A stretch of DNA of 64,000 nt from Escherichia coli. Its GTDB lineage: Bacteria; Pseudomonadota; Gammaproteobacteria; Enterobacterales; Enterobacteriaceae. The notes beneath the pieces were generated by a model that saw nothing but the letters and a program-made list of their open reading frames with translations, made no database searches and was not told where the DNA came from. The number at the start of each line of letters is the position of its first letter. Position 1 is the stretch's first letter. Positions 17,857 to 20,937 of the stretch are shown here, piece by piece. The position numbers and the translations under genes are program-made. The stretch lies in the NCBI RefSeq assembly GCF_030384885.1, contig NZ_CP128613.1; one strand, given 5' to 3'.

Positions 17857-18588
17857 ATGAAAAAAGTTCTGATTGCCGCGTTAATTGCAGGTTTTAGTCT
17901 TTCCGCCACAGCTGCCGAAACTATTCGTTTTGCCACCGAAGCCTCCTATCCTCCGTTTGAATCAATGGATGCAAACAACCAGATCGTTGGTTTTGACGTC
18001 GACCTGGCGCAGGCATTGTGTAAAGAGATTGATGCGACCTGCACTTTCTCTAACCAGGCGTTTGACAGCCTGATCCCAAGCCTGAAATTCCGTCGCGTAG
18101 ACGCGGTGATGGCTGGTATGGATATCACCCCGGAGCGTGAAAAGCAGGTGCTGTTTACCACGCCGTACTATGACAACTCTGCCCTGTTTGTGGGTCAACA
18201 AGGTAAATACACCAGCGTTGATCAGCTGAAAGGCAAAAAAGTCGGCGTTCAGAACGGGACGACGCACCAGAAATTCATTATGGATAAACATCCGGAAATC
18301 ACCACGGTTCCTTATGATAGCTACCAGAACGCAAAACTCGATCTGCAAAACGGTCGTATCGACGGCGTTTTTGGTGACACCGCAGTGGTAACCGAATGGC
18401 TGAAAGATAACCCGAAACTGGCGGCTGTCGGCGACAAAGTAACCGATAAAGATTACTTCGGTACTGGCCTCGGCATCGCGGTACGTCAGGGCAACACTGA
18501 ACTGCAGCAGAAATTCAACACTGCGCTGGAAAAAGTGAAGAAAGATGGCACTTACGAAACCATCTACAACAAATGGTTCCAGAAGTAA
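17857..18588 (+). CDS. artI: Periplasmic arginine-binding protein ArtI (243 aa)
   Basis: Translation MKKVLIAALIAGFSLSATAAETIRFATEASYPPFE with signal peptide. Confidence 0.95.
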   Translation: MKKVLIAALIAGFSLSATAAETIRFATEASYPPFESMDANNQIVGFDVDLAQALCKEIDATCTFSNQAFDSLIPSLKFRRVDAVMAGMDITPEREKQVLFTTPYYDNSALFVGQQGKYTSVDQLKGKKVGVQNGTTHQKFIMDKHPEITTVPYDSYQNAKLDLQNGRIDGVFGDTAVVTEWLKDNPKLAAVGDKVTDKDYFGTGLGIAVRQGNTELQQKFNTALEKVKKDGTYETIYNKWFQK

Positions 18589-18594
18589 TACCTG

Positions 18595-19311
18595 ATGAAT
18601 GAATTTTTTCCTTTAGCAAGCGCCGCCGGGATGACCGTCGGCCTTGCCGTTTGTGCATTGATTGTCGGACTGGCGCTGGCGATGTTCTTTGCGGTGTGGG
18701 AGTCAGCAAAATGGCGTCCTGTCGCGTGGGCAGGTTCAGCGCTGGTGACGATTCTGCGTGGTCTGCCAGAAATTCTGGTGGTGCTGTTTATCTATTTTGG
18801 CTCCTCTCAGTTACTGCTGACGCTTTCGGATGGCTTCACCATCAATCTTGGGATCGTACAGATCCCGGTGCAGATGGACATTGAGAACTTCGACGTTAGC
18901 CCGTTCCTGTGTGGGGTTATCGCCCTGTCGCTGCTGTATGCCGCCTATGCCTCGCAAACCCTGCGTGGCGCACTGAAAGCGGTACCGGTGGGCCAGTGGG
19001 AATCCGGTCAGGCGCTGGGGCTGTCGAAATCGGCTATCTTTTTCCGCCTGGTGATGCCACAGATGTGGCGTCATGCGTTGCCTGGCCTCGGTAACCAGTG
19101 GCTGGTACTGCTAAAAGATACCGCATTGGTCAGTTTGATAAGTGTGAATGACTTAATGCTGCAAACCAAAAGCATCGCCACTCGTACCCAGGAGCCATTT
19201 ACCTGGTACATTGTGGCGGCGGCGATTTACCTGGTGATTACCCTGTTGAGTCAGTACATTCTCAAACGCATTGACCTGCGCGCGACACGTTTTGAGCGGA
19301 GGCCTGGCTGA
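18595..19311 (+). CDS. artQ: Arginine ABC transporter permease ArtQ (238 aa)
   Basis: Translation [32 protein letters not shown]; membrane protein. Confidence 0.95.
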
Positions 19312-19979
19312 TGCTTGAGTATTTACCCGAACTAATGAAAGGGCTACATACCAGCCTGACGCTAACCGTTGCCTCGCTGATTGTGGCGCTGATTCTGGCG
19401 TTAATTTTTACCATCATCCTGACGCTGAAAACGCCGGTACTGGTGTGGCTGGTGCGGGGCTATATCACGCTGTTTACCGGTACGCCGCTGCTGGTGCAGA
19501 TCTTTCTGATTTACTACGGGCCGGGCCAGTTCCCGACGTTACAGGAATATCCGGCACTGTGGCATCTGTTATCAGAACCGTGGTTATGCGCGCTGATTGC
19601 GTTGTCACTGAACAGTGCGGCGTATACCACGCAGCTGTTTTACGGTGCAATTCGTGCGATCCCGGAAGGTCAGTGGCAATCCTGTAGTGCCCTGGGGATG
19701 AGCAAAAAAGATACGCTGGCGATCCTGCTGCCGTATGCCTTTAAACGCTCACTCTCTTCTTATTCCAACGAAGTTGTGCTGGTGTTTAAAAGTACCTCTC
19801 TGGCTTACACCATTACGCTGATGGAAGTGATGGGTTACAGCCAGTTGTTGTACGGACGCACCTACGATGTCATGGTGTTCGGCGCGGCGGGAATTATTTA
19901 CCTGGTCGTCAACGGCCTGCTGACACTGATGATGCGTTTGATCGAGCGCAAAGCGCTGGCGTTCGAGCGACGGAATTAA
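19311..19979 (+). CDS. artM: Arginine ABC transporter permease ArtM (222 aa)
   Basis: Translation [27 protein letters not shown]; start overlaps the artQ stop by 1 nt. Confidence 0.95.
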   Translation: MLEYLPELMKGLHTSLTLTVASLIVALILALIFTIILTLKTPVLVWLVRGYITLFTGTPLLVQIFLIYYGPGQFPTLQEYPALWHLLSEPWLCALIALSLNSAAYTTQLFYGAIRAIPEGQWQSCSALGMSKKDTLAILLPYAFKRSLSSYSNEVVLVFKSTSLAYTITLMEVMGYSQLLYGRTYDVMVFGAAGIIYLVVNGLLTLMMRLIERKALAFERRN

Positions 19980-19998
19980 TGTTATCTACGTGCTAATG

Positions 19999-20032
19999 CC
20001 GGGTGCAGCGTGCACGCCTTATCCGGCCTACA
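19999..20032. repeat. REP (repetitive extragenic palindrome) element
   Basis: GCCGGGTGCAGCGTGCACGCCTTATCCGGCCTAC closely matches the REP consensus. Confidence 0.7.
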
Positions 20033-20056
20033 TAGTGCATAGATTAATATAATAAA

Positions 20057-20090
20057 GACGGACAACCCACTAAGTTGTCCGTCTTTTTTT
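20057..20090 (+). terminator. Rho-independent terminator of the artPIQM operon
   Basis: Perfect 10-bp stem GACGGACAAC / GTTGTCCGTC followed by a 7-T run. Confidence 0.8.
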
Positions 20091-20096
20091 ATTTAT

Positions 20097-20135
20097 TATG
20101 AATTATTTAATCATATTTATTGCATATAAATTCAC
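20097..20135 (+). promoter_or_regulatory. Candidate tandem ARG boxes (ArgR operator) upstream of artJ
   Basis: TATGAATTATTTAATCAT and TTGCATATAAATTCAC resemble the ARG box TGAAT-N4-ATTCA; artJ is a known ArgR-regulon member. Confidence 0.4.
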
Positions 20136-20205
20136 TTGATGGCATTGTTATCTCATGCCGCAGACACGGCCAAAAATCATAAGATTGACAGACGGGAGTT
20201 CCATC

Positions 20206-20937
20206 ATGAAAAAGTTAGTTCTTGCCGCTTTACTTGCATCCTGTGCATTCGGCGCTTCTGCCGCAGAGAAAATCAATTTCGGCGTATCCGCGACCTATCC
20301 TCCCTTTGAATCTATAGGTGCTAATAATGAAATTGTCGGCTTTGATATCGACCTGGCAAAAGCGTTATGCAAACAGATGCAGGCAGAATGTACTTTTACC
20401 AATCACGCTTTCGACAGCCTCATCCCGTCACTGAAATTCAGAAAATATGACGCCGTTATCTCCGGTATGGATATCACGCCGGAACGTAGCAAGCAGGTAT
20501 CATTTACCACGCCCTACTACGAAAACTCAGCTGTTGTGATTGCCAAAAAAGATACCTACAAAACGTTTGCCGACCTGAAAGGCAAACGCATTGGGATGGA
20601 AAACGGTACAACGCACCAGAAATATATTCAGGATCAACACCCGGAAGTAAAAACTGTATCCTATGACAGTTATCAAAATGCCTTTATCGACCTGAAAAAT
20701 GGTCGTATTGATGGGGTATTTGGTGACACAGCGGTGGTAAACGAATGGCTGAAAACCAATCCGCAACTGGGCGTTGCTACTGAGAAAGTGACCGACCCGC
20801 AGTACTTCGGCACCGGTCTGGGCATCGCTGTACGTCCGGATAATAAAGCCCTGCTGGAAAAACTGAATAACGCACTGGCAGCGATTAAAGCAGATGGTAC
20901 GTATCAGAAAATCAATGACCAGTGGTTCCCGCAGTAA
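20206..20937 (+). CDS. artJ: Periplasmic arginine-binding protein ArtJ (243 aa)
   Basis: Translation MKKLVLAALLASCAFGASAAEKINFGVSATYPPFE; paralog of artI. Confidence 0.95.
   Translation: MKKLVLAALLASCAFGASAAEKINFGVSATYPPFESIGANNEIVGFDIDLAKALCKQMQAECTFTNHAFDSLIPSLKFRKYDAVISGMDITPERSKQVSFTTPYYENSAVVIAKKDTYKTFADLKGKRIGMENGTTHQKYIQDQHPEVKTVSYDSYQNAFIDLKNGRIDGVFGDTAVVNEWLKTNPQLGVATEKVTDPQYFGTGLGIAVRPDNKALLEKLNNALAAIKADGTYQKINDQWFPQ

Follow-up and report, generated by a model that had tools for sequence, protein, structure and literature searches.

The window, a stretch of 64,000 nucleotides analyzed as a whole, comes from an Escherichia strain and contains artPIQM-artJ, its arginine ABC importer locus. 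We put at roughly 93% the probability that this identification, with the mechanism described below, explains the region. The ArtP ATPase and the ArtQ/ArtM permease are thought to be common to two paralogous binding proteins, ArtI and ArtJ. ArtI is encoded within the operon, and artJ forms its own monocistronic unit 3' of a REP element and an intrinsic terminator. The two copies differ in degree of repression, in Lrp input at the artP promoter (PartP) and in the ligand pocket. The original prediction was right in outline, and the locus is well studied and already published from work on K-12 (Wissenbach et al. 1993, 1995; Caldara et al. 2007; Torres Montaguth et al. 2019, PMC6640053).

The locus is 100% identical to that of E. 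coli 2013C-4282, and the annotation of a 100%-identical record, NZ_CP027579.1, matches the gene calls artP-artI-artQ-artM-artJ, which are as follows.

17111..17839, plus strand: artP, ABC ATPase subunit (annotation of the identical record).
17857..18588, plus strand: artI, periplasmic binding protein of pocket type E28/A86/Q132 (Pfam SBP_bac_3, E=1.8e-42; pocket mapping).
18595..19311, plus strand: artQ, permease subunit (open reading frame list; annotation of the identical record).
19311..19979, plus strand: artM, permease subunit (open reading frame list; annotation of the identical record).
20206..20937, plus strand: artJ, high-affinity arginine-binding protein of pocket type S28/S86/E132 (Pfam SBP_bac_3, E=7e-43).

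The starts given in the open reading frame list for artP (a TTG at 17012) and artJ (20155) are upstream extensions. As had been predicted, artI and artJ flank the permease genes, with artQ and artM between them here and in the annotation of NZ_CP027579.1. Gene order is kept across 80 Enterobacteriaceae loci, and artJ is linked to artPIQM without exception in the 74 complete loci.

Pairwise alignment of ArtI and ArtJ yielded 154 identities in 241 positions (64%) with 80% positives and no gaps (E=1e-123), in agreement with the predicted paralogy, and the two proteins score 144.7 and 145.9 bits, respectively, against Pfam SBP_bac_3 (curated cut-off, 26.4). The conserved string on which the paralogy had been proposed corresponds to invariant alignment columns. 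The similarity is not limited to the N-terminal halves, as had been stated, since identity in the mature protein is 64.3% in the N-terminal half and 65.2% in the C-terminal half. Third-codon-position identity between artI and artJ is 44%. In a neighbor-joining tree covering about 75 Enterobacteriaceae species, ArtI (76 sequences) and ArtJ (79 sequences) are each monophyletic, and ArtI-ArtJ identity within a genome stays at 62.5–66.5%, compared with 83–100% among orthologs, with no sign of gene conversion. These observations support an ancient duplication, older than the Enterobacteriaceae radiation. The proposed tandem arrangement holds only loosely, since the copies are not adjacent: artQ-artM (1.4 kb) separates them here and in each of the 74 complete loci. 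The matches listed in the genome scan were only Enterobacteriaceae ArtJ orthologs (84–98% identity) and the profile protein search returned close relatives, so for the age of the duplication outside this family we rely on the literature.

It is also conceivable, although we consider it unlikely, that artJ is not a local duplicate of artI and that a stand-alone gene of the ArtJ/STM4351 type was acquired or relocated beside artPIQM, with control by ArgR gained afterwards. In the tree, ArtJ groups with Salmonella STM4351, an unlinked gene, and not with ArtI. We take STM4351 to be a separate chromosomal locus in Salmonella. The two-operon picture in PMC2228313 points the same way. Furthermore, artJ is enteric-restricted in the STRING and RegPrecise surveys, with artPIQM widespread (PMC2228313, PMC5343134), and Mannheimia lapT, a proposed ArtJ ortholog, is unlinked to artPIQM (PMC2228313). 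The regions upstream of artP and artJ align at their ARG boxes only, with no wider promoter homology found, which is likewise compatible with acquisition. However, with HisJ as the root, ArtI, ArtJ and STM4351 form one clade without the Coxiella protein; artI and artJ have the same orientation, are both 243 codons long and differ by no indels; and the linkage of artJ is invariant, as noted above. GC3 does not differ systematically between artI and artJ in 75 species and so gives no support for horizontal transfer of artJ.

The prediction had placed ARG boxes only before artJ. ARG boxes were defined as 18-bp imperfect palindromes matching WNTGAATWWWWATTCANW, or by their score against a weight matrix. 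The matrix was trained on 16 validated boxes from the K-12 operators carA, argA, argECBH, argD, argF, argI, argG and argR, with no art boxes included. Four boxes were located at the two art promoters.

17017..17034, plus strand: artP promoter-distal ARG box TTTAACTTTTAAAGCAGA (5.6 bits; identical to K-12; conserved in 74 species).
17038..17055, plus strand: artP promoter-proximal ARG box ATTGCATAATTATTCTGT (17.8 bits; second-best single box in 64 kb).
20098..20115, plus strand: artJ promoter-distal ARG box ATGAATTATTTAATCATA (5.1 bits; one member of the top-scoring pair).
20119..20136, plus strand: artJ promoter-proximal ARG box ATTGCATATAAATTCACT (20.9 bits; best single box in 64 kb).

The best 3-bp-spaced pair in the 64 kb is the artJ site at 20098-20136 (26.0 bits), within 1 bp of the predicted 20097-20135, and its score is significant. 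The second best is the artP site at 17017-17055 (23.4 bits), whose proximal box is the sequence predicted at 17039-17056, offset by 1 bp and, as anticipated, scoring lower than artJ. By chance, 6e-5 pairs per 64 kb are expected at the artJ score and 3e-4 at the artP score, and none of 20,000 local shuffles reached either. Both sites can be placed within the range of real operators, because the eight validated operators score 17.6–39.5 bits in leave-one-out tests. With the 2-bp box spacing found in argR, scores at the art sites are far lower than with 3 bp. Among approximately 64,000 positions the proximal boxes rank first (artJ) and second (artP), and the distal boxes are weak, at about 5 bits each. 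The artJ proximal box has one mismatch to the consensus (0.002 expected by chance), is identical to K-12 and is conserved in 77 species; the artP proximal box has two mismatches (0.03 expected by chance in 64 kb) and, like its distal partner, is conserved in 74 species. Other single ARG-like boxes, including those at 39972, 47773 and 14165, reach at most 13.6 bits, which is chance level, have no partner box and were discarded.

Both operator pairs are conserved across Enterobacteriaceae loci, with median scores of 28.8 bits for artJ and 19.1 for artP against -14 for a coding control. A scan of 958 kb gave 143 pairs with scores of 18 bits or more, and 141 of them lie at art promoters. Of the other two, one lies just upstream of artJ (locus L080) and one where the region upstream of artP is expected in locus L040, which lacks an artP call. 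Since artP and artJ carry the two best pairs and both are conserved in about 75 species, the restriction of ARG boxes to artJ was wrong. The artP operator is comparably significant and conserved, and it is experimentally documented in K-12. From the sequence, ArgR binding is predicted at both promoters of this strain.

It is very improbable, in our judgment, that ArgR control was partitioned after the duplication, with functional ARG boxes at artJ only and weak, non-functional look-alikes at artPIQM. The artJ pair does outscore the artP pair, both in the window and in the median across species, and repression of artJ is the stronger in K-12 (PMC8050422). However, besides the rank and conservation of the artP boxes, the artP operator outscores two validated operators, those of argD and argR, in the leave-one-out comparison and is identical to the K-12 operator reported to be bound by ArgR (PMC6640053). 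Across gammaproteobacteria, artPIQM is a core member of the ArgR regulon and artJ a taxon-specific one (PMC5343134), the reverse of the original emphasis. Such a partition is refuted by published work showing that ArgR binds and represses PartP. The proposed regulatory sub-functionalization, in which one copy alone would keep ARG boxes, is not supported: a two-box ArgR operator is present at each promoter, and complementary loss of control elements was not found, as both copies retain the operator. Because both operators are kept and two pocket positions are fixed for different residues (see below), the copies have diverged quantitatively in their regulation, and they have diverged in the protein as well.

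Promoter elements could be placed relative to the proximal boxes, each of which contains TTGCAT followed 17 bp on by a -10-like hexamer.

17039-17044, plus strand: predicted PartP -35, TTGCAT, inside the artP proximal box.
17062..17067, plus strand: predicted PartP -10, TACTAT, 17 bp after TTGCAT and conserved across genera.
20120-20125, plus strand: predicted -35 of the artJ promoter (PartJ), TTGCAT, inside the artJ proximal box.
20140..20148, plus strand: predicted PartJ extended -10, TGgCATTGT, at 17-bp spacing, with ATGGCATTGT conserved across genera.

These candidate hexamers fit the published arrangement, in which ArgR occupies two ARG boxes, 3 bp apart, that overlap the -35 of artJ and of artP (PMC6640053). 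PartP transcription would start at about 17072-17076 and PartJ transcription near 20155, and the predicted PartP agrees with a published G+C-rich stretch at -96 to -116 (PMC6640053). In the proposed mechanism, both sigma-70 promoters share one operator design, two 18-bp ARG boxes 3 bp apart, with the strong promoter-proximal box probably holding the -35 hexamer TTGCAT, so that arginine-loaded hexameric ArgR would exclude RNA polymerase. The artJ operator, closer to the ARG consensus, would be repressed more strongly, and Lrp would act as an additional repressor at the artP promoter. In K-12, repression is ~11- to 14-fold for artJ and ~3.4-fold for artI (PMC8050422), Lrp represses PartP only (PMC6640053), and ArgR is described as binding and repressing both promoters in an arginine-dependent manner (PMC6640053, citing Caldara 2007). 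The regulatory points (ArgR at both promoters, stronger repression of artJ and Lrp at artP only) have all been published.

The strong terminator and REP element predicted before artJ were both located, and a further set of such elements follows artJ.

19998..20031, plus strand: single REP element 3' of artM, with an exact match to CGYCTTATCMGGCCTAC (consensus of the REP 3' half) at 20015-20031.
20054..20093, plus strand: intrinsic terminator of the artPIQM operon, a 13-15 bp stem with six G-C pairs followed by a T-run, identical to K-12.
20960..21117, no strand assigned: REP-like repeats and terminator between the convergent artJ and rlmC (REP, terminator and Rfam matches).

The fold of the terminator/REP region between artM and artJ has a free energy of -44.5 kcal/mol (z=-6.5), and the hairpin of the REP element is visible in it. 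Because its loop is shorter, this element was missed by a 36-nt REP consensus of fixed length allowing up to 3 mismatches, whereas the 3' half consensus matched it. The interval between artJ and rlmC holds a REP match at 21028-21044 (minus strand), a terminator at 21091-21110 followed by a T-run, and a match to Rfam ES036 at 20985-21027 (minus strand).

The comparison of ligand-binding residues suggested with the original prediction was made by mapping pocket positions to HisJ/LAO numbering, and revealed two fixed differences, at positions 28 and 132. ArtI carries E28/Q132 in 76 sequences and ArtJ S28/E132 in 79, with no exception. R94, D174, Y31 and F69, which comprise the stacking aromatics and the residues that in HisJ/LAO (Arg77, Asp161) hold the alpha-carboxylate and the alpha-amino group of the ligand, are invariant in all of these sequences. 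For both proteins the closest solved structure is that of arginine-specific STM4351 (PDB 2y7i; E=1e-93 for ArtJ and 2e-82 for ArtI), with 59% identity to ArtJ and 55% to ArtI. STM4351 has the ArtJ pocket type, Ser 28 and Glu 132, whereas ArtI has Glu28/Gln132 instead, and its acidic residue sits at the LAO Asp11 position. In Tv2483 of Treponema vincentii, Glu at the LAO-L117 position forms a bidentate salt bridge with the guanidinium, and its loss costs ~5000-fold in affinity (bioRxiv 10.1101/350942). The Ser28/Glu132 of ArtJ is the arrangement of both arginine-specific STM4351 and Tv2483.

These differences raise the question of whether the divergence that matters lies in the proteins, ArtI and ArtJ having acquired different ligands or affinities through the pocket swap, with regulation as secondary tuning. 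We consider the chances of this about even. Both positions are fixed, as described above, and the 132-equivalent Glu is the key guanidinium contact in Tv2483 (bioRxiv 10.1101/350942). ArtJ is reported to be high-affinity and arginine-specific in PMC2228313, which also paraphrases Wissenbach 1995 as assigning ArtI a low, non-specific affinity; elsewhere the ArtI ligand is reported as arginine and ornithine (PMC6640053), and the K-12 RefSeq annotation labels ArtI 'putative'. Since the sources disagree on the ArtI ligand, the functional consequence of the swap is a putative one. Moreover, a Coxiella protein with an ArtI-type pocket was deposited as an arginine-binding protein, and the regulatory differences are real and measured. 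Protein divergence complements the main explanation, that of one importer locus under ArgR control at both promoters, and does not exclude it. More tentatively, and with odds that we place somewhat below even, the fixed reciprocal swap may mean that ArtI is not a redundant arginine binder but represents a distinct physiological ligand or affinity class, in which case two functionally different importers would share one membrane complex. In addition, recombination between artI and artJ in nature may delete or duplicate artQM: contigs with hybrid junctions in GCA_018439965.1 and in the Klebsiella assemblies GCA_022741185.1, GCA_053613535.1 and GCA_002856605.1 may be either real recombinants or assembly chimeras.

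As a discovery these results carry little weight, since the locus, its transcription units, the ArgR operators, the repression of artJ and the Lrp input are all published. Their use lies in correcting the view that only artJ has ARG boxes and in showing that both operators are conserved across the whole family Enterobacteriaceae. The two fixed pocket differences could also help to settle the long-standing question of the ArtI ligand.

The artPIQM-artJ locus of E. coli K-12 has its gene set, order, orientation and two transcription units in common with the window. Individual coding genes are 93–97% identical at the nucleotide level, and the artP operator, the artJ proximal box and the artM terminator are identical base for base. 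In contrast, the artM-artJ spacer is ~64 bp shorter than in K-12, which we take to mean a single REP where K-12 has two. There are also three substitutions in the artJ distal box, and farther upstream ybjQ and ybjP are separated by an inserted pentapeptide-repeat gene. The argT-hisJQMP system of E. coli and Salmonella likewise combines two SBP_bac_3 paralogs (~70% identical) with one permease/ATPase, one paralog lying in the operon and the other having its own promoter, with differing regulation (PMC6640053). However, those paralogs are adjacent, whereas artI and artJ are separated by the permease genes. Control of the argT-hisJQMP paralogs is split qualitatively, argT being sigma-54/NtrC-dependent without ArgR control and hisJ sigma-70-dependent with ArgR, whereas artI and artJ are both controlled by ArgR.

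The arginine transport locus was identified at window 16.9-21.1 kb from the ORF list, the sequence and a megablast search of complete E. coli genomes. Its sequence has 100% identity to that of E. coli strain 2013C-4282, whose record annotates artP, artI, artQ, artM and artJ with ybjP and rlmC as flanks, and its art gene order is also that of K-12. Start positions were corrected to 17111 (artP) and 20206 (artJ); the mechanical ORF list runs both further upstream.

Features of the art locus (window positions)
17017-17055, ArgR operator of artP
17111-17839 (+), artP
17857-18588 (+), artI
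18595-19311 (+), artQ
19311-19979 (+), artM
20015-20031, exact match to the REP 3' half consensus
20054-20093, terminator, a 13-15 bp G+C-containing hairpin followed by a T-run
20098-20136, ArgR operator of artJ
20206-20937 (+), artJ

Nucleotide identity to K-12 is 93-97% per art gene and 86% for ybjP, and the 90-95% identity band of the megablast search holds 5,407 of 5,453 E. coli records. Of 5,426 complete E. coli genomes, 2013C-4282 is the only one that window 16364-24757 matches at 100% identity, and the six fetched representatives of Escherichia species are about equally distant from this segment (90-95%). These distances indicate that the window derives from a divergent lineage of Escherichia that is filed under E. 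coli. Between ybjQ and ybjP lies a 613-aa ORF (13954-15795, minus strand) that has weak pentapeptide-repeat matches (Pfam Pentapeptide_4, E=1e-6, under cut-off) and no counterpart at the K-12 position; NZ_CP027579.1 annotates it as a frameshifted pentapeptide-repeat pseudogene. Its flanking DNA appears A+T-rich and contains several ARG-like hits at chance level.

The original prediction held that candidate ARG boxes occur only before artJ. To score such sites, box pairs were located by consensus in the K-12 control regions of carA, argA, argE/CBH, argD, argF, argI, argG and argR, and the 16 boxes were converted into a symmetrised weight matrix from which art sequences were left out entirely. 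These pairs match the operators reportedly described in Charlier 1992 and Maas 1994. In the 64-kb window, 20119-20136 leads the single boxes with 20.9 bits, followed by 17038-17055 with 17.8 bits. Among 3-bp-spaced pairs the top two are 20098-20136 (26.0 bits), upstream of artJ, and 17017-17055 (23.4 bits), upstream of artP, with the third-ranking pair at 14.1 bits. Both sites are significant: from exact score distributions, pairs scoring this high would be expected 6e-5 and 3e-4 times in 64 kb, and none of 20,000 local shuffles of either intergenic region reached the observed pair score. Both fall within the range of the eight validated operators scored leave-one-operator-out (17.6 to 39.5 bits), higher than argD and argR. 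Thus, the matrix scan that confirms the artJ boxes also contradicts their restriction to artJ, since it finds the artP operator as the second-best pair.

The artP control region is identical to K-12 over both boxes and the promoter. At artJ, the proximal box, spacer and terminator match K-12, the 5' leader is one substitution apart and the distal box, in this register, carries three substitutions. According to the summary of Caldara et al. 2007 in Torres Montaguth et al. 2019 (PMC6640053), artJ, artP and hisJ each have two 18-bp ARG boxes, 3 bp apart, to which hexameric ArgR binds, and at PartJ ArgR keeps RNA polymerase out. The same paper shows PartP to be repressed about three-fold by Lrp and PartJ to be unaffected (PMC6640053), and with 0.6 mM arginine artJ is repressed 11.4-14.3-fold and artI 3.4-fold (review table, PMC8050422). 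Because a G+C-rich stretch of PartP is published at -96 to -116 (PMC6640053), we infer a start near 17072-17076, with TTGCAT at 17039-17044 as -35 and TACTAT at 17062-17067 as -10. By analogy, PartJ may have TTGCAT at 20120-20125 as its -35, with TGgCATTGT (20140-20148) as an extended -10. What points to these putative hexamers at both promoters is their conservation.

A strong terminator and a REP element were indeed found ahead of artJ (20054-20093 and 20015-20031), and the 19980-20100 segment folds at -44.5 kcal/mol (z=-6.5). The strict full-length REP pattern gave no match to this artM-artJ element because its loop is shorter. The artM-artJ spacer measures 226 bp in the window and 290 bp in K-12 (L010; compared at window 19980-19997), and the additional ~64 bp looks like one further REP unit. 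Spacer lengths across genera span 153 to 456 bp, with the operator remaining ~108 bp ahead of the artJ start codon. On the other side of artJ, an Rfam ES036 (CssrF) sRNA match (20985-21027, minus strand; 38.8 bits, gathering score 37.6) falls within the REP-like repeat cluster separating artJ from rlmC, and is probably REP-like sequence with no distinct sRNA gene.

Conservation was assessed by one genome scan with the ArtI and ArtJ alignment, which yielded 80 loci, all from Enterobacteriaceae; genera include Escherichia, Salmonella, Citrobacter, Klebsiella, Raoultella, Enterobacter, Kluyvera, Buttiauxella, Cedecea, Kosakonia, Atlantibacter and Franconibacter. The order artP-artI-artQ-artM-artJ is found in all 74 loci with complete flanks. 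An ARG-box pair lies 5' of artJ in 77/77 scorable loci (median 28.8 bits, minimum 17.8) and 5' of artP in 72/74 at >=14.7 bits (median 19.1); the artP upstream pair scores 8.6 bits in locus L088, and the extraction window cut the artP site in L059. The coding control has a median of -14 bits. Among 143 pairs of >=18 bits in the 958 kb fetched, 141 lie at the artP or artJ promoter, while one of the remaining two lies just 5' of artJ (L080) and the other where the artP upstream site would be expected in a locus with artP uncalled (L040). Such conservation at both promoters agrees with a comparative study of the gammaproteobacterial ArgR regulon, in which artPIQM is a core member and artJ taxon-specific (PMC5343134).

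About 70 bp of the artP promoter-operator (window about 16993-17105) is almost invariant across Enterobacteriaceae genera. This far exceeds what ARG boxes alone would require, and is consistent with the overlap of Lrp, ArgR and RNA polymerase sites reported in K-12. In the artP proximal box (17038-17055), position 10 is T in Escherichia (ATTGCATAATTATTCTGT, 17.8 bits) and C in nearly all other genera (L017-L090; ATTGCATAACTATTCTGT, 11.5 bits), so in Escherichia the artP operator matches ArgR more closely than elsewhere.

ArtI and ArtJ are 64% identical (80% positives) over 241 residues with no gaps (E=1e-123), and the conserved string quoted in the original prediction corresponds to true invariant columns. 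The similarity is real but not confined to the N-terminal halves, the part named in the original prediction: identity of the mature proteins is 64.3% in the N-half and 65.2% in the C-half. The genes share 66.9% DNA identity, and the third-codon-position identity of only 43.9% and longest identical run of 14 nt indicate an old split. In a HisJ-rooted tree of 76 ArtI and 79 ArtJ sequences, each paralog is monophyletic; STM4351 groups with ArtJ and a Coxiella protein falls outside. Identity between paralogs of one genome is 62.5-66.5% throughout, compared with 83-100% among orthologs, and no gene conversion between artI and artJ was detectable among species representatives. This reciprocal monophyly and constant paralog identity indicate that the split predates the Enterobacteriaceae radiation. 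An ancient duplication is thus supported, although "tandem" is inexact for genes that the permease genes separate. Larsen et al. 2007 (PMC2228313) find artI inside a conserved artP-artI-artQ-artM string whose range takes in Pasteurellaceae, report artJ only from enteric genomes and argue that lapT, an unlinked gene of Mannheimia, is the ArtJ ortholog. On this Enterobacteriaceae sampling, acquisition or relocation of an ArtJ-type gene, rather than local duplication, seems unlikely, and GC3 gives no transfer signal in artJ.

Recombination between direct repeats is expected to leave artP-hybrid-rlmC, and ArtI/ArtJ hybrid proteins surfaced in the profile search. ArtI(N)::ArtJ(C) hybrids occur in this context without artQ and artM (L091-L094, L096 and L097; for example L091 5001-5753), on at least three sequence backgrounds and with varying crossover points (NGTTHQK, DSYQNA and GRIDGVFGDTAVV). 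Copies of one such sequence, P0041, from four samples are 1-9 nt apart and encode one protein, as the look-up selects for by design. The reverse combination, ArtJ(N)::ArtI(C) (hybrid P0033), from Klebsiella pneumoniae assemblies and ENA samples, lies in an artM-hybrid-artQ-artM context (L098-L102), the junction that a tandem duplication through unequal crossover of artJ with artI should produce; this hybrid is seen on 8 short contigs, with ~2x coverage where contig names state it. Coverage is 2-3x for most hybrid contigs. Identical artI-artJ runs reach 21-26 nt in some species, including the NGTTHQK crossover site, enough for both RecA-dependent recombination and short-k assembly errors, and the ArtI(N)::ArtJ(C) hybrids represent either genuine recombinants with the permease genes deleted or chimeras created during assembly. 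In a Cronobacter sakazakii 696 scaffold (L095 5001-5732), an annotated "ArtI" has an ArtJ-like N-terminus with S28 and Q132, and thus neither pocket acidic residue, and the gene in the artJ position is shortened to 156 aa. Since 10-N runs flank both genes, this is probably a scaffolding artefact between paralogs. P0001 and P0002 are ArtJ variants with in-frame internal tandem duplications of 57 and 34 residues, on one contig each.

Ligand recognition was compared by mapping HisJ/LAO contact residues onto ArtI and ArtJ via PDB alignments. The contacts of Oh et al. and Yao et al. are reportedly D11, Y14, F/L52, S69, S70, S72, R77, L117, S/T120, T121, Q122 and D161. Backbone-binding and stacking residues Y31, F69, R94, T136, H137 and D174 are invariant in both paralogs. 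At position 28 (LAO D11) ArtI has Glu where ArtJ has Ser, and at position 132 (LAO L117) ArtI has Gln where ArtJ has Glu, both differences being fixed in all sequences examined; position 86 is mostly Ala in ArtI and Ser in ArtJ. These differences suggest that ArtI recognises ligand differently from ArtJ. Sources disagree over ArtI: its ligands are arginine and ornithine in PMC6640053, its affinity is roughly ten-fold lower and non-specific in Wissenbach 1995 as paraphrased in PMC2228313, and the K-12 RefSeq annotation labels it "putative".

Regulatory sub-functionalisation through ARG boxes at one copy only is not supported, as artI and artJ both keep ArgR control; they differ in repression strength, Lrp input and ligand pocket. 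Since the regulatory facts on artPIQM-artJ are all published already, the finding is, one wrong headline claim apart, a correct re-identification of a known system. The pocket pattern of STM4351 is that of ArtJ, and that of the Coxiella protein is ArtI's. In Tv2483, a Glu at the L117-equivalent position forms a bidentate salt bridge to the guanidinium group, and its removal costs ~5000-fold in affinity (bioRxiv 10.1101/350942); the matching Glu132 would rationalise ArtJ as an arginine-specific, high-affinity protein.
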